From UHGV virus genome UHGV-0050635: a DNA stretch of 10,490 nt; one strand, written 5' to 3'. Made by a program: the position numbers and the translations under genes. Source of the DNA: a virus. The first letter of the stretch is position 1; each line of letters opens with the position of its first letter. The notes beneath the pieces are model-generated. The model worked only from the letters and a program-made list of their open reading frames with translations. It was not told the origin of the DNA and made no database searches. Of this stretch, positions 1 through 10,274 are shown in pieces.

Positions 1-611
1 TTTTCAAGGATCGAAACTTCTGGGTTTTCGTCATATTTATTGTGGGGACGTGGTCTTTCTATAACATTTTTGATCAACAACTTTTTCCTGTCTTTTATGC
101 AGGTTTATTCGAATCACACGATGTAGGAACGCGCCTGTATGGTTATCTCAACTCATTCCAGGTGGTACTCGAAGCGCTGTGCATGGCGATTATTCCTTTC
201 TTTGTGAATCGGGTAGGGCCAAAAAATGCATTACTTATCGGAGTTGTGATTATGGCGTTGCGTATCCTTTCCTGCGCGCTGTTCGTTAACCCCTGGATTA
301 TTTCATTAGTGAAGTTGTTACATGCCATTGAGGTTCCACTTTGTGTCATATCCGTCTTCAAATACAGCGTGGCAAACTTTGATAAGCGCCTGTCGTCGAC
401 GATCTTTCTGATTGGTTTTCAAATTGCCAGTTCGCTTGGGATTGTGCTGCTTTCAACGCCGACTGGGATACTCTTTGACCACGCAGGCTACCAGACAGTT
501 TTCTTCGCAATTTCGGGTATTGTCTGCCTGATGTTGCTATTTGGCATTTTCTTCTTGAGTAAAAAACGCGAGCAAATAGTTATGGAAACGCCTGTACCTT
601 CAGCAATATAG
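1..611 (+). CDS. MFS transporter, LacY/oligosaccharide:H+ symporter family, C-terminal fragment (5' end lies outside the window; frame is open from nt 3, stop TAG 609-611)
   Basis: Reading frame is open from the window edge to 611. Translation aligns by eye with the LacY C-terminal half (GTR.YGY...NR.G.KNALL...KYS/ITS.F..R.S.TI.L motifs) and contains multiple hydrophobic helices. Probable host flank gene. Confidence 0.8.
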   Translation, partial: FKDRNFWVFVIFIVGTWSFYNIFDQQLFPVFYAGLFESHDVGTRLYGYLNSFQVVLEALCMAIIPFFVNRVGPKNALLIGVVIMALRILSCALFVNPWIISLVKLLHAIEVPLCVISVFKYSVANFDKRLSSTIFLIGFQIASSLGIVLLSTPTGILFDHAGYQTVFFAISGIVCLMLLFGIFFLSKKREQIVMETPVPSAI

Positions 612-622
612 ACGTAAACTTT

Positions 623-662
623 TTCCGGTTGTTGTCGATAGCTCTATATCCCTCAACCGGAA
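623..662 (+). terminator. Inverted repeat just downstream of the transporter stop (ttccggttg ... caaccggaa, 9-bp stem, ~22-nt loop); weak terminator or recombination-site candidate
   Basis: Perfect 9-bp inverted repeat seen in sequence at 623-631 / 654-662. No strong U-tract follows, so terminator function is uncertain. Confidence 0.3.
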
Positions 663-1140
663 AATAATAATAGTAAAATGCTTAGCCCTGCTAATAATCG
701 CCTAATCCAAACGCCTCATTCATGTTCTGGTACAGTCGCTCAAATGTACTTCAGATGCGCGGTTCGCTGATTTCCAGGACATTGTCGTCATTCAGTGACC
801 TGTCCCGTGTATCACGGTCCTGCGAATTCATCAAGGAATGCATTGCGGAGTGAAGTATCGAGTCACGCCATATTTCGCTATCAGGATTCTGTGTGATGGT
901 TACATCGCCCGGCCCAGGGCTGTTTAGTCATCAGCGCTTTCTGACAGTGCTGAGATTTCAACCTGTTGCAGTAAAAATGAGTAGATATAAGGCAAGTGTG
1001 CTGCCAAACCCATCTTTTACGGGGTGAAGGTAGATTTCGTTTGAAGGGTATCTGGTGTCCCCTGCAGACATCTACTTGGCGCGGCAGGGGATTGATTGGA
1101 ATGATGTTTTTTAGATGTGAAAAATATTTTACCCGCTATT

Positions 1141-1341
1141 TTACCCATTGGCGCGGCTTAAGAGCTTATTTTTGAATTCACAATGGTCACGATATAACCA
1201 TCTTGCTCGTCCGTGGATAACTTTGGCTTTTGGCAGGTCGCCGGACTTAATCCGGTCGTAGATGAAGGTTTTACCGAAGCCAGTATCGGCCATGATGAAT
1301 TTCAAATCAACCAGTGAATCAGGCTGTAGTTCGTGTTGCAT
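1141..1341 (-). CDS. AlpA/Xis-family small DNA-binding protein (putative excisionase or prophage regulatory protein)
   Basis: 66-aa ORF with ATG at 1341 and a GGAGA motif 8 nt upstream. The translation LVDLKFIMADTGFGKTFIYDRIKSGDLPKAKVIHGRARW matches the AlpA/phage-excisionase HTH signature (TG.S.STIY ... G.FP.P.K.G.RA..W). Confidence 0.7.
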   Translation of the reverse strand: MQHELQPDSLVDLKFIMADTGFGKTFIYDRIKSGDLPKAKVIHGRARWLYRDHCEFKNKLLSRANG

Positions 1342-2526: not shown

Positions 2527-3198
2527 TCACCCATCTTGCTGCGGTGCTACTATTGAAAAGTGCTCACACCCTTTAGCCCAAATAGTTTTGATAGTTGTCC
2601 AACTGACTGGAACCTTGATTTCGATTCTCCCGCTACAGTCACAAGTTTCGCAATCATCATCACCAAAGCATTCCGGGCAGCTTATAAACGTAGTTTCTGA
2701 AAATTCACCGGATAGCACACCCTTAGCGCCGTTCTCGGCTGTTAGTCTCTTCGGCACCATGACCCAACCATCCGGAATTACCGGAGAGTTGCCGGGTTCT
2801 TTAATGTGCAAGCGAGGCTCACCATCTTTTGGCTCAGGCCACTGGCGCTCCATGTTGATCTTCAATTTATCTTCCATAGCAGCGGTAATTTCAGCATCGC
2901 TGATGCCAGCACGGCGCTGTGAATCCCACAACAGAAACTGCATATCAGCCCACTCGCTAAGATCGTCTGGTTCGGCTGCGGCTTCCAGTGCCTCTTTTGA
3001 GAGGTGTTTCAGTGGACCAATGGGGCCAACGCAGCCAAATGTGGAGTCAGACCATTTGGCATGCTCGTGGCGAATCTGTTCGCGTTCCAGTGATGCCAGT
3101 GCAATTCGTGCCAGTTCCATTTGTTCGCCACGAGTAAGCCCGTTTTCAAGCGGATTTTTAATGAATAATTCGATACGTTCTTTGGTAATAGTGGTCAT
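2527..3198 (-). CDS. Putative MazG-like (all-alpha) dNTP/NTP pyrophosphohydrolase domain protein with a Cys-rich C-terminal domain (223 aa)
   Basis: ATG at 3198 with AAGGTGA upstream. The N-terminal region (EQMELARIALASLEREQIRHEHAKWSDSTFG ... DMQFLLWDSQRRAGISDAEITAAMEDKL) resembles the phage dATP/dGTP pyrophosphohydrolase/MazG-like fold. The C-terminus carries CPECFGDDDCETCDC. Family assignment is from recalled motifs, not a search. Confidence 0.5.
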   Translation of the reverse strand: MTTITKERIELFIKNPLENGLTRGEQMELARIALASLEREQIRHEHAKWSDSTFGCVGPIGPLKHLSKEALEAAAEPDDLSEWADMQFLLWDSQRRAGISDAEITAAMEDKLKINMERQWPEPKDGEPRLHIKEPGNSPVIPDGWVMVPKRLTAENGAKGVLSGEFSETTFISCPECFGDDDCETCDCSGRIEIKVPVSWTTIKTIWAKGCEHFSIVAPQQDG

Positions 3199-3393: not shown

Positions 3394-3822
3394 TCACTCT
3401 CCTTTGATGCGAATGCCAGCGGCGCGGGAATCATTCCATCGCTTTACTTCTTCACGAATTACGTCAATGCATTCTTTCGAATCCATTAGGTAATCTTCAT
3501 CAAAAAGACGTTCCTGTTCGTTTTCTATCGCAACAATGATTGCTTCAACTAACTTTTGTGCCTGAGAACCACTTTCTAACTCTGCAATGCGCTTCTCTGC
3601 GGCTTCCAGCTCATCCAGCAGCGCCCGAACTACATCAGCGGTTTTCTGGCACTGGTCAACAATGCTAACGTCACAACCAGTATCGAAACCGTCCTCAGTT
3701 TCAAAGCGGGTCTCTACAGAGTCGCCGTCGATATCAGATGGTTCGAACCCGGCAATGTTTTCCAGAATGCCGATTATGCTTTCTGCGCTATGACGTAATG
3801 CGCGTTTATCGATGTTGCTCAT
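3394..3822 (-). CDS. Hypothetical acidic coiled-coil protein (142 aa)
   Basis: ATG at 3822 with AAGGAG 7 nt upstream. ATGA start/stop overlap with the upstream gene indicates translational coupling. Confidence 0.75.
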   Translation of the reverse strand: MSNIDKRALRHSAESIIGILENIAGFEPSDIDGDSVETRFETEDGFDTGCDVSIVDQCQKTADVVRALLDELEAAEKRIAELESGSQAQKLVEAIIVAIENEQERLFDEDYLMDSKECIDVIREEVKRWNDSRAAGIRIKGE

Positions 3823-4250
3823 GACCGCACTCCTTTGCGAAGCTGGGAAGCAAATTCACGGATAGTGTCATCAAGGTCTGGACACAACAGATTGTCAGCA
3901 AACATCTCTACCCCCTGCGCCCGTACTTCAGCCAGGAAAGCGTCGGTGGCTGGGGTGTCTGATTGCAGAGACTTTGCGCGATAGTCATTCCACCCTCTTG
4001 CATACATGGGATTAACTTGCACTCCATCTTTTACGCAATATGCCTGCCCTCCACGGTTGATAACCTCGATTTCGTCCATAGCGCCAGACTTCAGCCCCGC
4101 ATTCTCCGCTGCCAGCGCCGCGCACTTGGCCTCCGCTTCAGCAAATTTACGCACCAGATATTCAGCGTTTGTTTCGTTAACCTTTAAATCTCGTGGGATG
4201 CATTTACCTTTCAGAAATCCATCCATCTCAATTAGTGACATTTGTTTCAT
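3819..4250 (-). CDS. Hypothetical protein (143 aa)
   Basis: ATG at 4250. ATGA overlap with the stop of the upstream small gene. Part of the coupled leftward operon. Confidence 0.75.
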
Positions 4251-4411
4251 TTCTTCCCACTCCGCAACATCGCATTCAGATATTTGTTTTGATTCACTGA
4301 TGGAAAAGAATTTCTCTTAAGCAATTCCTCTCTCGATGGCATTGGCTTTACGCGTTGGCGAATAATCATTTCTGCCGGAAGAATGCCGGGATTGTATGCA
4401 AGTCCTCTCAT
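4247..4411 (-). CDS. Hypothetical small protein (54 aa from ATG 4411; alternative in-frame starts at 4429 and 4444)
   Basis: GAGGAA lies 6 nt upstream of ATG 4411. The longer track ORF (to 4561) overlaps the neighbouring gene by 140 bp and is unlikely in full. The stop overlaps the next start (ATGA). Confidence 0.45.
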
Positions 4412-4421
4412 GGTAAATTCC

Positions 4422-4715
4422 TCAGTCATTACTGATAGCGCCATAGCGTGAGCGGTAATTACGCAGGCGCGGGTCAATTTCAGGGAAGTGGGTATATGTG
4501 GCTTTGCGGAATGGTCGGATTGATGTCTGGTAAATTCGCTCGCGTTCTTCTTTCTCTGCAAGCCATATACAATGGCGAAATTCCTTTTCCTCTTTCGTTT
4601 CCTGCGGTAGCGACATTATCCGGTCGTAGTTTTTCCTGAATTTATCCAGCACCTCCGATACGGAATTGCCGGAACAGCGGCGCGGGTCATCCGCACCATA
4701 CTGAGGCGCTGGCAT
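4422..4715 (-). CDS. Hypothetical protein (97 aa)
   Basis: ATG at 4715 with AGGAGAA 5 nt upstream, 14 nt downstream of the ssb stop. Confidence 0.7.
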
Positions 4716-4728
4716 GATTTTCTCCTGA

Positions 4729-5235
4729 TTAAATTGCGTGAATAGCGTGACGAGGGAAGGGGAGAGTTACTGGTGCAAAGGGTATATCGTCGTCAAAATC
4801 CATCGGAGGTTCGTTGTGTTGTGCTGGTGATGATTGCCGCTGTGGCTTCTGTGATTGCCTGCTGGCTGCTTGTTGTTTGCTGTCGCCAATGCCGCCAAGC
4901 ATTTGCATCACGCCATTAATTCCGACATGAACCTCGGTTGTGTAACGGTCTTGCCCTGACTGGTCTTTCCACTTTCTGGTTCTCAGCATTCCCTCGAAAT
5001 AAATCTGATCACCTTTTTTCACATACTGCCCCACGACCTCAGCCAGTTTCCCGGATACAGCAACACGATGCCATTCAGTCAATTCCTTTTGCTCGCCAGT
5101 ATTTTTATCTAGCCATTGTTCTGACGTGGCTATTGTCAGGTTAGCGAACGCTGTTCCTGATGGTGAGTATCGAACTTCCGGGTCTTGTCCTACCCGACCA
5201 AGGATAATCACCTTATTTACGCCTCTGCTTGCCAT
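4729..5235 (-). CDS. ssb: Single-stranded DNA-binding protein (phage-encoded SSB) with an unusual 15-aa C-terminal extension beyond the DDDIPF tip
   Basis: Translation [23 protein letters not shown]...TEWHRV...GQDRYTTEV...[11 protein letters not shown] is collinear with E. coli SSB (OB fold, Gly/Gln-rich linker, acidic tip). Here the reading frame continues [15 protein letters not shown] before the stop at 4729-4731. Confidence 0.9.
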
Positions 5236-5943
5236 TTATGCCGCCTGTTTTAGTTCGTTAACTCTGATGTTCATTACCTGAACGCATTTAGCCTGCGCCT
5301 CCTCGTTGCCAGCCATTAATTGCCAGTCACGCTGATAACGCTCGATGAGTTTTTTCTTGTCAGTTTCTGTTGACGCATAATCGCTGAAGTCTTTCAGGAT
5401 TTGTTCGCAGTCAACCGATGGAGATTTCTGGTTGGTATTTTCTGGTGATGGTTTGTTATCTGATGCTGGGATTGCCCATCCCGGCAGTGATGGAGGGAGC
5501 CAGTAAAATCCTGTTCCATCCTTCAGTTTTGCCCTGTGCCACCCCTGCTTTTTATCGAGAGATGTTTGTGCGAAACCTTCCTCAAGGTTATACAGATACC
5601 GACCGATTCCCCACTGAACGGCAGCGCGCTTCATTGCACCGGAACGACCGCCTTTGACGGCTTCTACCTGCGTGTTTTCAGCAGCATCCCATTTGGTTAC
5701 CCATTCGGAATCAATCTTGATTGATATGCCGCATTCAACTCCGCCGTTGTTGGGAATATCGCGGTATTCATTGCGCCATCCTGCTTTGCCGCAAACATCG
5801 TCCAGGCGCTTCATGATTGCCCGGTTCGTGACATAAGCCAGCACCATAGCCCACACCTTGCCATCGCGTGTTTTACCGCTTTGCTGTATTCGCCATTCGA
5901 TATCTTCAGGGCTGAATGGCTCATCGAATTTGTTCAAATCCAT
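5236..5943 (-). CDS. Rad52/Sak-like single-strand annealing protein (phage recombinase), 235 aa
   Basis: ATG at 5943 with GAGGTGA upstream. Motifs KAGWRNEY ... GGVECGISI ... GGRSGAMKRAAVQWGIGRYLYN resemble the Rad52/22-family SSAP core. The stop abuts the ssb start (TAAATG). Confidence 0.7.
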   Translation of the reverse strand: MDLNKFDEPFSPEDIEWRIQQSGKTRDGKVWAMVLAYVTNRAIMKRLDDVCGKAGWRNEYRDIPNNGGVECGISIKIDSEWVTKWDAAENTQVEAVKGGRSGAMKRAAVQWGIGRYLYNLEEGFAQTSLDKKQGWHRAKLKDGTGFYWLPPSLPGWAIPASDNKPSPENTNQKSPSVDCEQILKDFSDYASTETDKKKLIERYQRDWQLMAGNEEAQAKCVQVMNIRVNELKQAA

Positions 5944-6042
5944 AATTCACCTCAGAATGGACACGGCCCAAGGAAATAACGCTGATTTAATACTTCGACT
6001 CGGGACAAATTAAGGCATACCCGCATTCCTTCGCGGTCGCCA

Positions 6043-6201
6043 TTATGGCGATACCAGAGAGCTTTCTGCGTGTACATGCGTCTCTGTAACTTGCTCTCCT
6101 TCACTGTGGTTGCAAGTGACATGAATATCTCCTTCGTTACCGATTAATTCTTTCATCTGACGAATGAATTCTTCGTCTGACCAGTTATCCGTAAAACTCA
6201 T
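6043..6201 (-). CDS. Hypothetical small protein (52 aa) in the position lambda kil occupies (immediately after and overlapping cIII)
   Basis: ATG at 6201 overlaps the TGA of the cIII-like gene (ATGA). Assignment is by position only; no sequence similarity to Kil is claimed. Confidence 0.45.
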   Translation of the reverse strand: MSFTDNWSDEEFIRQMKELIGNEGDIHVTCNHSEGEQVTETHVHAESSLVSP

Positions 6202-6368
6202 GGACGGCCTTGTTGTTTCAAAATATCCCAAAGCTTTTCGAGCAAACTTTTCATTCTTGGTTGTTTAAAGTCTGCTCCGGTTAAAATATTTTTTCGTGAA
6301 TGCTGTACCGATAAAATCGGGTTGAAAGGGCGAACCGATGCCGCCCCTGCAATAGCGAACTGTTGCAT
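6198..6368 (-). CDS. cIII: cIII-like protein (putative FtsH/HflB inhibitor that stabilises cII), 56 aa
   Basis: ATG at 6368 with AGGAG 7 nt upstream. The N-terminus MQQFAIAG and the SLLEKLWDILKQQG segment parallel lambda CIII (MQYAIAG ... SLLERITRKL...IDILNQPG). Position in the operon matches. Confidence 0.6.
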   Translation of the reverse strand: MQQFAIAGAASVRPFNPILSVQHSRKNILTGADFKQPRMKSLLEKLWDILKQQGRP

Positions 6369-6432
6369 AGGATGCTCCTTCTGTTTGATTGCATAACGAA
6401 AACGCCTCAAGTGAAGCGTTATTGGTATGCAT

Positions 6433-6459
6433 ATAAAAAAGCCCTCACACTGGAGGGCG
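6433..6459 (-). terminator. Rho-independent terminator on the - strand upstream of cIII (tL-like, presumably overridden by N)
   Basis: On the - strand, stem gccctc-cagtgt-gagggc is followed by TTTTTTATAT. Confidence 0.6.
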
Positions 6460-6520
6460 AAGAAGATTTCCAATAATCAGAACAAGTCGGCTCCTGTTTA
6501 GTTACGAGCGACATTGCTCC

Positions 6521-6548
6521 GTGTATTCACTCGTTGGAATGAATACAC
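6521..6548. repeat. Perfect 9-bp inverted repeat (gtgtattca N10 tgaatacac) in the intergenic region
   Basis: Seen directly in sequence. Candidate protein-binding site or RNA hairpin within the pL transcript. Confidence 0.5.
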
Positions 6549-6592
6549 AGTGCTGTGTTTATTCTGTTGTTTATGCTAAAAATAAAGGCCGA

Positions 6593-7216
6593 CTATGCGG
6601 CCTCGGAAGGAAGTCCAATCATCTTATTCAAATCTTCTACCCGTAAAGCAGGAAGTGCTGTACTTGCTTTATCTGCTTCTTTTGGTAGCAATTCTTTGCT
6701 TTCAGGCCAAACCTCAATAAGTCGCTTAACTGTTGTGACTGAGTTCAAAGCAGCCCATACATTTGATTCGATATCCTTTTTCTTGGCTTCAAGTTTTTGT
6801 TGCAATGCGCAGATTTCATCAAACCTTTTTGTTATTTCGTGTTCTGCGCTAAACATGCATTTATCTTTTATCGGAGTAGGGAGAAATATATCTTCGCCGT
6901 TGCCGTCTTTCCCATATGAATGCCATCCAACCCTTCTGCCAGATACAGTCAGATAAATTGAAGTAGAACGAAAATCGTATGAGTAAAATGAACATCCCAT
7001 CTTTCCAAGTTCTTCACTTATAGCTACCAACTTGGATGATAACTGATCCACTTCCTCAGTTTTCTTTTTACCGCCAAACGCAATAACTCTGGCGTCAAGT
7101 GCAAGCTGGTTCTTTAACTTTGTTACTTCTTCAAGCTCAGTGAAAACCCCAGACTTAATTAAAGCGTTACGAGCGATTTCCTCTTTCATTCTCGTAGTTA
7201 AGCGGATTGATGACAT
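6593..7216 (-). CDS. Hypothetical protein (207 aa) in the accessory hotspot between cIII and ral
   Basis: ATG at 7216 with GAGGA 6 nt upstream (the track ORF starts at an upstream TTG). No predicted transmembrane character and no recognisable family. A hairpin overlaps the stop codon (6585-6602). Confidence 0.7.
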   Translation of the reverse strand: MSSIRLTTRMKEEIARNALIKSGVFTELEEVTKLKNQLALDARVIAFGGKKKTEEVDQLSSKLVAISEELGKMGCSFYSYDFRSTSIYLTVSGRRVGWHSYGKDGNGEDIFLPTPIKDKCMFSAEHEITKRFDEICALQQKLEAKKKDIESNVWAALNSVTTVKRLIEVWPESKELLPKEADKASTALPALRVEDLNKMIGLPSEAA

Positions 7217-7252
7217 ATTAATTCCTCTCAAATAAGAAAATAAAGGCCACCA

Positions 7253-7960: not shown

Positions 7961-7985
7961 CAATAAAAAACCCACCGAAGTGGGC
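7961..7985 (-). terminator. Rho-independent terminator on the - strand immediately after nun
   Basis: On the - strand, stem cccac-ttcg-gtggg is followed by TTTTTTATTG. Confidence 0.65.
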
Positions 7986-8314
7986 TATGACCATTTTTTA
8001 TTTGGATTTCGTTGGTGAGCGTGATTAACAACTCTGTGCATTACATCCTCATATTTTTCATCTTCAATTTTTTCGACATCGCGAGGAAATGGTGTTGCTA
8101 ATGCTTTGTCAACTTTATCCATTGGGTCTTCATTAATCTTATATTCAGGACCGTCATCTATAGCATTAAATCCAGGTGTTACACCGTTTTTTAATGCATA
8201 TGCTATCCTCTTTTCCCATCTCGCTATTCTCCTCCTGTCTCGAGATGTAAGACCTCTATCAGATACTTTTCTGTTTTGTCCGCGGTCAGGATTAACATAA
8301 ATAGTCTTTTTCAC
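7985..8314 (-). CDS. nun: Nun-like transcription termination / phage-exclusion protein (HK022 Nun type), about 109 aa
   Basis: Contains the arginine-rich motif DRGLTSRDRRRIARWEKRIAYALK and the C-terminus ...NPNKKWS with the penultimate Trp characteristic of HK022 Nun. Start is uncertain: GTG 8314, ATG 8317 or ATG 8323. Confidence 0.8.
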   Translation of the reverse strand: MKKTIYVNPDRGQNRKVSDRGLTSRDRRRIARWEKRIAYALKNGVTPGFNAIDDGPEYKINEDPMDKVDKALATPFPRDVEKIEDEKYEDVMHRVVNHAHQRNPNKKWS

Positions 8315-8325
8315 CATAAGCATAC

Positions 8326-8631
8326 TCAATAAGCACCGTACGGTAGTTTACTGTACAATTTTATTTTTTGGACTGCATGTATTTTGTTTCCTAATGGGTT
8401 TGAATCTTTGTAATAAATACTTCTATTTTTTCGAACGACTTCTTCTTTCTTCTTGCAGCAAAGGATTCCTAGTGATGCTGCTTTGTCTGCTTTGACGCAA
8501 CCAGAGAGCTTTAGCGCAATTTTTCGCGCCAGTGCTTCATTACTGCGTCGCTCGGCAATAAGTTCTGCTCTGCGAGCTTTGTAGCGGCTTTTTGCCGTAC
8601 CTTTGGATTCTTTCCAGACAATGGTTACCAT
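8326..8631 (-). CDS. N: N-like transcription antiterminator, phage-21-type arginine-rich motif (101 aa)
   Basis: ATG at 8631 with AAGGAG 6 nt upstream. The N-terminal GTAKSRYKARRAELIAERR is the phage 21 N ARM as I recall it. The C-terminal region resembles N-family tails. A cognate nutL lies upstream. Confidence 0.8.
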   Translation of the reverse strand: MVTIVWKESKGTAKSRYKARRAELIAERRSNEALARKIALKLSGCVKADKAASLGILCCKKKEEVVRKNRSIYYKDSNPLGNKIHAVQKIKLYSKLPYGAY

Positions 8632-8741
8632 GATGGTCTCCTTTAAGTGGCTTTGGCGCATGACGCGTCGAGGTGCTTATCTTCTCGATCGCTGTCTTGC
8701 AGCTGCAATTCGCGCCATCCCCAAAACCACTCAAGTTCTGG

Positions 8742-8920: not shown

Positions 8921-8948
8921 GAAATAAAAAAGGGGCGAAAGCCCCTTA
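8921..8948 (-). terminator. Rho-independent terminator of the repressor transcript (- strand)
   Basis: On the - strand, stem aggggc-tttc-gcccct is followed by TTTTTTATTTCC. It overlaps the c2 stop codon. Confidence 0.7.
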
Positions 8949-9596
8949 AGGAAGGTTTGCTAGCTTGGCATCAACGACAACGCCAATGATTTTACAGTTC
9001 CCATTGATTTCAATCATTGGGTATTGTGGATTGAGTGGTTTCAGGAATTTTCTACCGGCATCAATAACTAACTTTTTGAATGTCGCCTCGTTTTCTCCTT
9101 CAAGTTTGGCGACTACCAACTTTCCATTACGTGGTTCGACTTCTGGGTCGACGAGAATAATCATCCCCTCAGGAATACTCAGTCCTGCCGGGGCAGTCAT
9201 TGAATCGCCTTTAACGTCGAGCCAAAAAGAGTCTTCAGAACAATCTACCGTTGTGTCGTACCAGTTATCTATTGCACGCCTATGATATGGCTCTACAGCT
9301 TCCATCCAACATCCTGCGCTTACCCAACTAATTAGAGGATACGAACCTCTTGGATCATGCCTGCTGTGATAGGCAATGTTTGAAAGACTATCCTCTCCTT
9401 TCAACAGGTAATCAGGGGAGCACTGCAAAGCCTTGGCTAAGGCCAATAGGTTTTCGCCATTGGGCTCAGTTTCAGATCGCTCCCATTGGGAAATAGCAAC
9501 ATTAGACACGCCAACCATCTTGCCAAGGGCAGCCTGCCTAATCTTGAGTTCTTTTCTGCGAGCGCGAATACGCTCACCCATCAGTTGTGTATTCAT
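8946..9596 (-). CDS. c2: Phage repressor, P22 C2 type (LexA/S24-like autocleaving repressor with N-terminal HTH), 216 aa
   Basis: Translation MNTQLMGERIRARRKELKIRQAALGKMVGVSNVAISQWERSETEPNG...IIGVVVDAKLANLP is nearly identical to my recollection of P22 C2. P22-type operators flank it on both sides. Confidence 0.9.
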   Translation of the reverse strand: MNTQLMGERIRARRKELKIRQAALGKMVGVSNVAISQWERSETEPNGENLLALAKALQCSPDYLLKGEDSLSNIAYHSRHDPRGSYPLISWVSAGCWMEAVEPYHRRAIDNWYDTTVDCSEDSFWLDVKGDSMTAPAGLSIPEGMIILVDPEVEPRNGKLVVAKLEGENEATFKKLVIDAGRKFLKPLNPQYPMIEINGNCKIIGVVVDAKLANLP

Positions 9597-9676: not shown

Positions 9677-9862
9677 ATGTACAAAAAAGATGTTATTGAC
9701 CACTTCGGAACCCAGCGTGCTGTTGCTAAAGCACTAGGCATTAGCGATGCAGCAGTCTCTCAGTGGAAAGAAGTTATCCCAGAGAAAGACGCCTATCGAT
9801 TGGAAATCGTTACAGCTGGCGCCCTGAAGTATCAAGAAAGTGCTTACCGCCAAGCGGCATAA
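9677..9862 (+). CDS. cro: Cro repressor, P22 type (61 aa)
   Basis: Translation MYKKDVIDHFGTQRAVAKALGISDAAVSQWKEVIPEKDAYRLEIVTAGALKYQ... matches recalled P22 Cro. GGAG RBS upstream. Confidence 0.9.
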   Translation: MYKKDVIDHFGTQRAVAKALGISDAAVSQWKEVIPEKDAYRLEIVTAGALKYQESAYRQAA

Positions 9863-9959: not shown

Positions 9960-10000
9960 ATATAGGAAAATTAACAAATGGCACAAGCAAGCTACAGCAA
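9960..10000 (-). promoter_or_regulatory. Candidate pRE (cII/C1-activated establishment promoter): TTGC-N6-TTGC on the - strand (forward 9987-10000)
   Basis: The - strand reads TTGCTGTAGCTTGC overlapping the 5' end of c1, the classical arrangement of the cII binding site at pRE. Confidence 0.5.
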
Positions 10001-10274
10001 GCCAACACAGCGAGAAATTGATCGCGCTGAAACTGATTTACTCATCAACCTGTCAACGCTTACCCATCGCGGTCTGGCAAAGATGATTGGCTGTCATGAA
10101 TCGAAGATAAGCAGAACGGACTGGAGATTTATTGCTTCGGTCTTGTGTGCTTTCGGAATGGCATCAGACATCAGTCCGATTAGCAGGGCTTTTAAGTATG
10201 CGCTTGATGAAATCACAAAGAAAAAATCCCCGGCCGCCACCGAGGATTTTAAGCAAATTGATATGCAATTCTGA
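9978..10274 (+). CDS. c1: cII-like transcriptional activator (P22 C1 type), 98 aa
   Basis: HTH region plus C-terminus [18 protein letters not shown] paralleling lambda cII (..KKRPAATERSEQIQMEF). Position after cro and nutR. Confidence 0.85.

Follow-up and report, generated by a model that had tools for sequence, protein, structure and literature searches.

A Rad52/Sak-type annealase, SSB and Abc2 encoded side by side in a lambdoid prophage: a recombination module probably served by host RecBCD

Genes of the early-left recombination module

The DNA analyzed here (the window) is a 10,490-nucleotide stretch of the virus genome UHGV-0050635, whose positions 4729..5943 are filled exactly by two back-to-back minus-strand ORFs. 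These encode a Rad52/Sak-type single-strand annealing protein (SSAP) of 235 residues, hereafter the annealase (5236..5943), and a bacterial-type SSB of 168 residues (4729..5235). Together with its neighbors, this region probably constitutes the Rec module that an E. coli lambdoid prophage carries in its early-left (pL) operon, in which small accessory ORFs, the annealase, the SSB, Abc2 and a DUF2737 protein follow one another in this order. All of the module ORFs are intact, and they are likely to be co-transcribed as a tightly packed set. The window is a prophage copy located at the csc/TorI (KplE1-type) site, with cscB as the host gene. The missing integrase gene beside the excisionase gene was considered as an anomaly and dismissed, as the excisionase is the TorI of a KplE1-type element; the integrase of such an element lies at the opposite prophage end. 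No tRNA gene was found in the window. The Chi sequence (GCTGGTGG) does not occur in it either, which is uninformative because only 0.14 occurrences are expected by chance.

Two small minus-strand ORFs precede the annealase gene. The first (6043..6201) encodes an acidic 52-residue protein of PHROG 2123 (E = 1.2e-41), is located just after cIII at the kil/arf position, and shares 80 nt with the next ORF in a different frame. A single pairwise comparison with P22 Arf gave only a 7-residue SDEEFI match (E = 0.013), so that homology to Arf is unsupported. The second (5952..6122; PHROG 1723, E = 9.4e-36) encodes 56 residues with no Pfam or NCBIfam match and occupies the position of P22 arf, directly upstream of the annealase gene and separated from it by an 8-nt spacer containing GGTGA. 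It is the equivalent of HK75_33 and Sf6 gene 29, and its position and length are as in HK75 and mEpX2.

The annealase matched Pfam Rad52_Rad22 (PF04098) with an E-value of 5e-26 and 91.9 bits (cutoff 20.3), its residues 4–136 being aligned with positions 7–153 of the 153-position profile, and PHROG 1097 with an E-value of 3.5e-130. Its homologues numbered 5594, and PF04098 was found in all 120 among the matches listed. When the AlphaFold2 model (mean pLDDT 85.5) was compared with the PDB using Foldseek, yeast Mgm101 (9yi9; E = 1.3e-4) and human RAD52 (5jrb/8rjw) were the best matches with a probability of 1.00, and the match after them was approximately 100-fold weaker in E-value. The assignment to the Rad52 family is based on the Pfam profile together with the predicted fold, since phmmer against PDB sequences gave no RAD52 match. 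An earlier note on this DNA, which had proposed a Rad52/Sak-like SSAP, is borne out in this respect. The annealing core (residues 1–135; 5539..5943, minus strand) is predicted to adopt the Rad52 β-β-β-α fold, with strands at residues 15–24, 30–38, 56–63, 68–77 and 80–89 and helices at 40–51 and 93–110. It is the most conserved part of the protein in an alignment of 38 homologues, where K97, K105 and R106 of the segment VKGG..MKRAAVQWG are invariant; as candidates for the basic residues that line the ssDNA groove, these may be equivalent to RAD52 K152/R153. Membership of the Rad52 family predicts that the annealase would form a ring oligomer and anneal strands independently of ATP. The core is followed by a small three-stranded sheet (residues ~123–160; 5464..5577, minus strand), modeled by AlphaFold2 with strands at 126–128, 136–139 and 145–149, in which W148, P151, W156 and P159 are invariant in the same alignment. 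This sheet resembles a WW domain, although the similarity to that of PRP40 was non-significant in phmmer (E = 0.1), and it is kept in non-enterobacterial relatives that match residues 1 to ~160.

Beyond a disordered linker (163–175), three helices (179–192, 196–209 and 214–234 in the model) make up a C-terminal domain (residues 179–235; 5239..5409, minus strand) that is common to P22 Erf. BLASTP against Erf gave 63% identity over 79 residues (E = 2e-30), a similarity confined to the C-termini, and no match to the ERF family (Pfam PF04404) was found at E ≤ 0.01, the Erf-type N-terminal core being absent. A profile comparison with the Rad52/Sak and Erf families, as the earlier note had proposed, hence gave a match to Rad52 and none to the Erf core, with only the C-terminus being Erf-like, and the “Erf-like” label given to the annealase in PHROGs and RefSeq reflects only this common domain. 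Judged from the alignments, it appears to be a portable domain, and a swap of the Erf C-terminal domain has previously been described (PMC2629481). We also considered the domain as an adaptor to Abc2-RecBCD, which is not our leading idea: the Sak4 of HK620 co-occurs with Abc2 without such a domain, Abc2 is functional in combination with lambda Bet (Murphy 2000, cited in PMC5928155), divergent relatives retain the domain without detectable abc2, and the same domain occurs alongside Abc2 alleles that are 55% to 100% identical.

On the minus strand, the annealase stop codon and the ssb start codon form a TAAATG junction (read from 5238 to 5233), as the earlier note had observed, and this zero-spacer arrangement suggests translational coupling. 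It recurred in 69 of 80 related annealase loci taken from IMG/VR, while an HNH_3 gene is inserted there in the other 11. The SSB consists of an OB-fold domain (PF00436, E = 7.7e-36, residues 6–104), a Gln/Pro-rich linker and an acidic DDDIPF motif. It matched the solved bacterial SSB 7f2n with 199 bits (E = 4e-58) and the 178-residue SSB of 1eqq/4mz9 with 194 bits (E = 1e-56), and is approximately 70% identical to 7f2n and 1eqq over the first ~115 residues. DDDIPF lies at residues 148–153 and is followed by 15 more residues, so that the C-terminus has no free terminal Phe; the 15 extra codons and the stop (4729..4776, minus strand) were defined by protein alignments and blastn. The same extension was present in 58 of the 80 loci, and the SSB ended at IPF in the remaining 22.

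In other loci, an HNH-like gene occupies the same spot, and its 3′ end has the same DNA sequence as the 15-codon tail. For one such locus, blastn matched the window from 4774 to 4729 and onward with the 3′ end of the HNH ORF, while the ssb body was only 76% identical. Extension and HNH-like gene are a strict either/or, the gene being present in 22/22 loci of one form and the extension in 58/58 of the other. The tail was also considered as merely a conserved leader of abc2, which was rejected because the tail sequence is absent from the spacer between abc1 and abc2 of P22. It is conceivable, though quite unlikely in our estimate, that the cap is not a neutral scar. A capped SSB might no longer recruit host tail clients (ExoI, RecQ, PriA and others), or might bind differently to the Erf-type C-terminal domain of the annealase, and would then reserve the single strands made by RecBCD-Abc2 for the phage annealase; the either/or pattern would reflect a homing-endonuclease site in ssb that switches the SSB tail between its capped and canonical forms.

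Downstream of ssb, a 13-nt spacer (TCAGGAGAAAATC; 4716..4728, minus strand) contains the abc2 ribosome-binding site AGGAG and, according to the gap classes in the 80 loci, is where optional genes for a DnaQ-like exonuclease or an HNH-like protein are inserted in relatives. It leads to a 97-residue Abc2, the P22-type anti-RecBCD protein 2 (4422..4715, minus strand; PHROG 656), which matched Pfam PF11043 over its full length (1–97/97; E = 4.9e-63, 209.8 bits) and shares 88/97 residues (~91%; E = 1.7e-57) with P22 Abc2 of PDB 8b1t chain A, including Pro68, the PpiB site. This identity suggests that the present Abc2 also binds RecC and alters RecBCD, as P22 Abc2 does for the E. coli enzyme (PMC9836394). 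Abc2 was described to convert RecBCD into a 5′-3′ exonuclease (Murphy 2000, as cited in PMC5928155), and its effect on RecBCD was still called incompletely understood in the 2022 structural paper (PMC9836394). The next gene (4247..4411, minus strand) encodes a small DUF2737 protein of 54 residues from an internal ATG, the PF10930 match (E = 1.9e-31) covering residues 51–103 of the long ORF. DUF2737 is a conserved follower of abc2, like P22 orf56 and HK75_29, and its position is kept in P22, HK75, mEpX2 and epsilon34.

Nuclease genes in the window and in related loci

No nuclease-family match was obtained with Pfam, PHROGs or NCBIfam for any window ORF of at least 40 residues, and the 10 ORFs of unknown function in the window gave no NCBIfam match. 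In 160 related loci, tblastn detected none of lambda Exo, Bet and Gam. The previous statement that the window has no 5′-3′ exonuclease gene therefore holds, as far as sequence profiles see, and so does the distinction from lambda exo/bet/gam. That Abc2-encoding phages lack a phage exonuclease is a textbook-level point about P22. The flanking ORFs yielded no nuclease family, and neither of the two outcomes named beforehand as speaking against the earlier reading, namely a 235-residue protein outside the SSAP families or a clear exonuclease next door, was observed.

Among the 80 IMG/VR loci, ssb and abc2 accompanied the annealase gene in every one, and lambda exo, gam and bet in none. The junction of ssb and abc2 carried an Rv2179c-like (DnaQ/DEDD) 3′-5′ exonuclease gene in 24/80 and an HNH-like ORF in 22/80, and 29/80 had the compact arrangement. 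Sixteen divergent Enterobacterales relatives of the annealase (<90% identical; 49–87% identity) mostly kept ssb, and abc2 was detectable in none of them by tblastn at E 1e-3, a threshold at which a divergent Abc2 could be missed. Because the pair is kept in these relatives without detectable abc2, it is not strictly dependent on Abc2.

Source of the resected strands

The identities of the components, their arrangement and their strict co-occurrence were established here, and for each biochemical step we draw on the literature on P22 Abc2 and on Sak4-SSB of HK620. By this analogy, the module is best explained by Abc2-redirected resection by host RecBCD combined with SSB and Rad52-like annealing, to which we assign a probability of roughly 0.7. 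Abc2 would bind the RecC subunit of host RecBCD, as in P22, and convert the enzyme to a Chi-blind form that carries out resection, leaving 3′ single strands. These would be coated by phage and/or host SSB, and the Rad52-like ring would anneal the coated strands to complementary single-stranded DNA, which could be a second resected end or lie at a replication fork. Such annealing could support recombination-dependent growth, concatemer formation and mosaic exchange. The module would lack its own nuclease because Abc2, probably its link to the host nuclease and not itself a nuclease, supplies one indirectly. HK75, a viable phage with the same gene order and 96% nucleotide identity, is in favor of this explanation. 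In HK620, Abc2 gave no stimulation of oligonucleotide recombineering (PMC5928155); this null result is expected because oligonucleotides need no resection, and it gives no positive support either.

Alternatively, the annealase and SSB could be self-sufficient on pre-existing single-stranded DNA, for instance in lagging-strand gaps or at ends that RecJ/RecQ or other host enzymes have resected, with Abc2 acting only protectively in a Gam-like manner. The pair without detectable abc2 in the divergent Enterobacterales is in line with this idea, although tblastn may have overlooked a diverged Abc2. The mEp234 type, in which seven phages combine SSB and SAP without an anti-RecBCD protein (PMC12315714), and HK620, where the stimulation of Sak4 in the oligonucleotide assay was due to the SSB alone and Abc2 added nothing (PMC5928155), point in the same direction. 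Against it, abc2 co-occurs strictly (80/80) in the E. coli/Salmonella lineage, and Abc2-modified RecBCD is not blocked but keeps its helicase and 5′-strand degradation (P22 literature, PMC5928155, PMC9836394). We hence regard self-sufficiency as unlikely.

It is very unlikely that the module is decayed, i.e., that its own nuclease, DnaQ-like or HNH and located between ssb and abc2, was deleted and its function impaired. Near-identical loci do carry the DEDD exonuclease or the HNH-like ORF exactly at this junction, and the 3′ end shared by the window ssb and the HNH ORF resembles a deletion or insertion scar. However, plaque-forming HK75 has exactly the same compact arrangement, which is as frequent as 29/80 and was recorded as a type for 27 phages, and the ORFs show no damage. 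Moreover, the optional nucleases are 3′-5′ DEDD or HNH enzymes, not 5′-3′ resection enzymes, and selfish mobile elements are common among HNH genes (PMC12315714).

An exonuclease of unrecognized fold in the adjacent ORFs (114, 94 and 92 residues, and the 143-residue EaE-like protein at 3819..4250) is scarcely to be expected: several neighbors have no Pfam or NCBIfam family, but they are “ea” accessory genes, which vary among modules that are identical in other respects. The 143-residue protein is a P22 EaE homologue (40% identity) whose AlphaFold2 model (mean pLDDT 54) was too poor for a fold search and whose predicted secondary structure is mostly helical. Some of its database homologues are named “HNH endonuclease”, a name that we rejected; it probably spread from EaE-HNH fusions such as epsilon34 gp31, since the protein has neither the HNH Cys/His motif nor a Pfam HNH match.

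Abc2-redirected RecBCD thus remains the best explanation, and the observation from which this analysis started is explained by known biology and not refuted. Reliance on host nucleases, one of the two options originally offered, would be realized through the P22-type Abc2. The other option, a partner among the adjacent unknown genes, was right in that a partner is present next door, whereas that gene is the well-known abc2 and not a nuclease. The case serves as a worked example in which a seemingly missing partner is a 97-residue hijacker gene just outside the region first singled out (4729..5943). The partner of the Erf-type C-terminal domain (the SSB tail or Abc2-RecBCD) and the partner choice of the capped tail could matter for recombineering with annealase/SSB pairs.

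Comparison with known recombination modules

The annealase shares its predicted N-terminal fold and Pfam family with RAD52, Mgm101 and Sak of the lactococcal phage ul36, whereas its sequence identity to RAD52 and Mgm101 is only 12–16%, and relative to these three proteins the phage lineage has added the WW-like hairpin region and the helical C-terminal domain of the Erf type. Lambda Red (exo-bet-gam) likewise combines a Rad52-superfamily annealase with RecBCD handling at the same operon position, but it has its own 5′-3′ exonuclease, blocks RecBCD with Gam and contains no SSB. The window does not qualify as lambda Red-type, having no YqaJ/lambda-Exo gene next to the annealase gene and no Gam. 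The hkaM-sak4-ssb-abc2 module of HK620 is built in the same way from a small ORF, an annealase, a cognate SSB and Abc2, and its SSB stimulates the annealase via the C-terminal tail (PMC5928155, Hutinet et al. 2018). In contrast, its RecA-like Sak4 and DUF669-type SSB are not homologous to the window proteins.

P22 (arf-erf-abc1-abc2-orf56) resembles the window in gene order and pL position, between kil/cIII and orf56 (DUF2737), in its Abc2 (~91–93% identical) and, as described above, in the annealase C-terminal domain. P22 also has no phage exonuclease, and its resection is attributed to Abc2-modified RecBCD. The window differs by the Rad52/Sak core (PF04098) instead of the Erf core and by a bacterial-type SSB at the abc1 position, and neither Abc1 nor a convincing Arf homologue was found in its module. 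The claim that the module stands in place of P22 erf/abc is thus not borne out, because abc2 lies 13 nt downstream of ssb and the annealase carries the Erf C-terminal domain; from these alignments, it appears to be a module of the P22 type in which the annealing core has been swapped and ssb replaces abc1.

Modules of the ES18/epsilon34/mEpX2 type contain the same annealase, SSB (91–99% identity) and Abc2, but a 182-residue Rv2179c-like (DnaQ/DEDD) 3′-5′ exonuclease (Pfam E = 1.3e-73) or HNH genes are added, either between ssb and abc2, where the window has only the 13-nt spacer, or between the annealase gene and ssb. The closest counterpart is HK75 (HK75_30 to HK75_33), which has the same order of 56-residue ORF, 235-residue annealase, 168-residue SSB with the same 15-residue tail, 97-residue Abc2 and DUF2737, is ~96% identical in nucleotides over 4200..6500, and has no nuclease gene in this module either; its right arm contains NinB/Orf and RusA and no exonuclease. 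Unlike HK75, the window has Nmad5, ral, and N-like and Nun-like genes on the upstream side of the module and a different set of ea genes downstream of it, and the small ORFs that separate cIII from its annealase gene are arranged as in mEpX2 and not in the HK75 kil pattern. Such modules were described as early as the genome papers on Sf6, ES18 and epsilon34, and were formally catalogued in 2025, when the HK75 functional type was defined as anti-RecBCD, SSB and SAP without a nuclease and assigned to 27 of 325 lambdoid phages (PMC12315714, Table 1; Zheng/Casjens/Smith et al., Genome Res 2025). The window fits this definition in gene order, spacing and its 96% identity to HK75, and the module is hence not new but a member of this already catalogued type.

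Annealase and SSB at 4729..5943

The interval 4729..5943 is composed of exactly two ORFs with no remainder. The first (235 aa; 5236..5943, minus strand) matched Pfam Rad52_Rad22 over residues 4-136 with 91.9 bits against a cutoff of 20.3 (E = 5e-26), and its AlphaFold2 model, computed with 38 homologues as input (mean pLDDT 85.5), gave yeast Mgm101 and human RAD52 as the top PDB matches at a probability of 1.00, the next being approximately 100-fold weaker. The second (168 aa; 4729..5235, minus strand) matched Pfam SSB (E = 7.7e-36) and solved bacterial SSBs (E ~1e-57). The junction between them reads GCATAAATGGCA on the coding strand, where stop and start abut as TAAATG. The Rad52-like SSAP directly coupled to an SSB, which an earlier note had read from the sequence alone, was hence confirmed by Pfam match, model and junction.

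The C-terminal 79 residues of the annealase share 63% identity with the P22 Erf C-terminus (E = 2e-30), and no similarity was detected between the N-terminal cores of the two proteins. Judged from this comparison, the annealase is a chimera of a Rad52-type core and an Erf-type C-terminus, the latter modeled as a three-helix bundle (residues 179-234) following a disordered linker. Non-enterobacterial relatives match residues 1 to ~160 only and are missing the Erf-type domain. A small three-stranded sheet at residues ~123-160 (5464..5577, minus strand), with W148, P151, W156 and P159 invariant, is retained even in distant relatives of this kind; it resembles a WW domain, and its match to the PRP40 WW domain was not significant (E = 0.1). 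The C-terminal helical domain of lambda Beta binds lambda Exo. It also binds the SSB tail (cited in PMC12315714), and by this analogy the Erf-type domain is probably a partner-binding domain, for which an SSB tail would be a likelier partner than Abc2, encoded next to ssb. The idea of an Abc2-specific role is weak, as relatives without detectable abc2 also have the domain, phage HK620 pairs Abc2 with an annealase lacking it, and it is invariant while Abc2 alleles span 55% to 100% identity.

The DDDIPF tip of the SSB is not terminal in the window, where it is followed by 15 further residues (4729..4776, minus strand). The DNA of these 15 codons and the following spacer exactly matches the 3' end of a Cys/His-rich HNH-like ORF (159 aa), where this is present between ssb and abc2. 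In IMG/VR, 80 loci have an annealase 99-100% identical to that of the window; the 22 of them that carry this ORF all have an SSB that stops at IPF, and the extended SSB, seen on both ssb sequence types, occurs in each of the other 58. In the comparison locus L082 (~6190..6670), the remaining ssb is only 76% identical to that of the window, and the tail sequence was not found in the P22 abc2 leader. Since SSB-tail recognition is reported to control annealase compatibility (10.1101/2020.04.14.041095; PMC5928155), the extended tail is the sole mildly interesting part of the locus.

Prophage setting and search for a nuclease

The window corresponds to the left arm of an E. coli lambdoid prophage. 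Nearly all genes lie on the minus strand, running from the immunity region with cI (8946..9596), cro (9677..9862) and cII (9978..10274) to the host sucrose permease gene cscB (42..611). The prophage end lies between cscB and a TorI-type excisionase gene (1141..1341). No integrase or tRNA gene was found on this side (42..1341), which fits a KplE1/CPS-53-type element with the integrase at the other end, and the attachment site should lie in the 530-nt non-coding stretch 612..1140.

All plausibly sized ORFs on the operon strand were compared with Pfam and PHROGs, and the unknowns also with NCBIfam; none, including those flanking the module, matched a nuclease family. The assignable neighbours were DUF2737, Ead/Ea22-like, a dATP/dGTP pyrophosphohydrolase-domain protein, TorI excisionase, Nmad5, Ral, N-like, Nun-like and cIII. 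The largest unassigned ORF (143 aa; 3819..4250) is a homologue of P22 EaE (40% identity) without an HNH motif, and its AlphaFold2 model (pLDDT 54) was too poor for a fold search. Nothing points to a cryptic nuclease in the window, and the right arm of phage HK75, a complete sequence with the same module, has NinB/Orf and RusA and no exonuclease.

The pyrophosphohydrolase (MazG-like, DUF550) domain occupies residues 42-137 of a 223-aa protein (2527..3198, minus strand) with a Cys-rich C-terminal extension, CPECFGDDDCETCDCSG; profiles do not make it a nuclease, and it possibly has a nucleotide-pool or anti-defence role. The Nmad5 gene (nucleotide-modification-associated domain 5; 212 aa; 6593..7231, minus strand; Pfam E = 3e-71) is flanked by ral and cIII within the pL operon, a position at which HK75 and P22 have no such gene. 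The N-like antiterminator gene (7985..8329, minus strand; PHROG 271, E = 7.6e-31) stands in direct tandem with a Nun-like transcription-termination (exclusion) gene (8326..8661, minus strand; PHROG 5632, E = 4.8e-71). In phage HK022 Nun replaces N, and HK75 is annotated with a Nun-like gene and without N, whereas the window prophage has both. Upstream of the annealase, ORFs of 52 aa (6043..6201) and 56 aa (5952..6122), both on the minus strand, share 80 nt that are read in different frames, and the same pair is annotated in mEpX2. Each has its own PHROG family (E = 1e-41 and 9e-36, respectively), labelled 'recombinase' on a basis that is not evident. No kil homologue was found between cIII and this pair.

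Abc2 and the proposed role of host RecBCD

The abc2 ORF (97 aa; 4422..4715, minus strand) begins 13 nt past the ssb stop, with an AGGAG ribosome-binding site in front. It matched Pfam Anti-RecBCD_p2 over positions 1-97 of 97 (E = 4.9e-63) and PHROG 656 ('abc2 anti-RecBCD'), and aligned end-to-end with the P22 Abc2 chain of PDB 8b1t (E = 1.7e-57), 88/97 residues being identical, including Pro68. This proline is described as occupying the active site of host PpiB in a paper that prefers the model of Murphy, according to which Abc2 attaches to RecC, causes RecBCD to act as if constitutively Chi-activated, and passes ssDNA to the phage recombinase (PMC9836394). The paper on the HK620 module describes Abc2 as converting RecBCD to a 5'-3' exonuclease (PMC5928155).

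The adjacent abc2 and this published P22 biology together account for the absent exonuclease: Abc2-redirected host RecBCD would feed the SSB and the Rad52-like annealase, to which we assign a probability of approximately 0.7. Components and linkage are observed, and we infer the biochemical steps from P22 and HK620. Upon induction or infection, the small accessory proteins, annealase, SSB and Abc2 would be translated from the pL transcript at a constant ratio, to which the zero-nt (annealase/ssb) and 13-nt (ssb/abc2) spacers would contribute. Abc2 would then bind RecC in host RecBCD, leading to Chi-independent unwinding and degradation of phage DNA ends with the 3' strand spared. This strand would be coated by phage and/or host SSB and annealed to complementary ssDNA by the Rad52-like ring.

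The main rival, clearly less probable, takes annealase and SSB as the true functional unit, using ssDNA from any source, with Abc2 only protective. It draws on relatives without detected abc2: when one genome per species was sampled, ssb lay immediately downstream of the annealase in most of 17 Enterobacterales relatives (L092-L108; 49-87% identity over the annealase core), while tblastn detected abc2 in none of them and only in a near-identical E. coli locus (L089). The strict ssb/abc2 co-occurrence in the E. coli/Salmonella lineage speaks against it; both genes are present in 80/80 IMG/VR loci. Near-identical module copies were also seen in L088 and L092, on contigs named 'Actinomycetes bacterium' MAG and 'Chryseobacterium sp.', labels most likely due to contamination or mis-binning of the assemblies.

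The compact arrangement of the window recurs in 29 of the 80 loci; a DnaQ-like exonuclease occurs in 24 and a 155-aa HNH_3 gene between annealase and ssb in 11, and lambda exo, bet and gam as well as P22 abc1 and arf are absent from all 80. A 3'-5' exonuclease is present in 6/17 Enterobacterales relatives (four Rv2179c-like, two DNA_pol_B_exo2). Such a DEDD enzyme (Rv2179c-like or PolB-exo-like) is the recurrent nuclease beside Rad52-like annealase and SSB in Enterobacterales (L092-L108; compared loci L002, 2036..2584, and L003, 1999..2547), and the 5'-3' lambda-Exo/RecE type was never found beside these pairs among the relatives examined. The 2025 survey of lambdoid phages calls a 3'-5' exonuclease in annealing modules curious (PMC12315714). 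Loss of an own nuclease by decay is improbable, and a nuclease hidden among the variable ea genes slightly more so. HK75, a viable phage, shows exactly this arrangement, and each optional nuclease either has the wrong polarity or is an HNH gene that is probably selfish. Redirection of RecBCD by Abc2 is preferred. The missing exonuclease, as judged from sequence profiles, and the missing lambda exo/bet/gam of the earlier note both stand, and of its two suggested sources, a host nuclease is favoured as RecBCD, while the neighbour-encoded partner is Abc2 and not a nuclease.

Comparison with known Rec modules

Megablast with 4200..6500 returned 411 phage records. HK75 has a gene order identical to the window at ~96% identity, including the 168-aa SSB. 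The annealase, ssb and abc2 genes are shared by mEpX2, mEp235, epsilon34 and g341c, in which an extra 182-aa gene separates the latter two and encodes an Rv2179c-like DEDD (DnaQ-type) 3'-5' exonuclease (Pfam E = 1.3e-73). In the window, cIII is followed by the 52-aa ORF, the 56-aa ORF, the Rad52-like annealase with its Erf-type C-terminus, ssb, abc2 and DUF2737 (4247..4411, directly after abc2 as in P22); in P22, the genes are arranged as cIII, kil, arf, erf, abc1, abc2, orf56. Compared with P22, the annealing core is exchanged and ssb sits at the abc1 position, while abc2 and then DUF2737 are kept. With full-length Abc2, the Erf C-terminus and matching gene order, the module is therefore P22-type with a swapped annealing core and ssb in place of abc1, and the earlier claim that it stands instead of P22 erf/abc fails, leaving that interpretation partly supported as a whole.

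Genes 33-36 of epsilon34 are described as Abc2, a possible nuclease, a bacterial-type SSB and 'Erf', a name resting only on the C-terminal 56 residues matching P22 Erf, and the same genome paper notes that Erf domain swaps had been discussed earlier (PMC2629481). The survey sorted the Rec modules of 325 lambdoid phages by functional type, reported DnaQ-like and HNH nucleases in them, and explicitly placed partner-domain shuffling outside its scope (PMC12315714). Its 'HK75' type (27 phages) combines anti-RecBCD, SSB and strand-annealing protein without nuclease, and its 'ES18' type (25 phages) is the same with a nuclease (PMC12315714). An analogue is hkaM-sak4-ssb-abc2 of HK620, whose annealase has no Erf-type C-terminal domain and is stimulated by its cognate SSB via the SSB C-terminal tail (PMC5928155). 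The arrangement in the window is hence not new, and belongs to a module type already described and catalogued.
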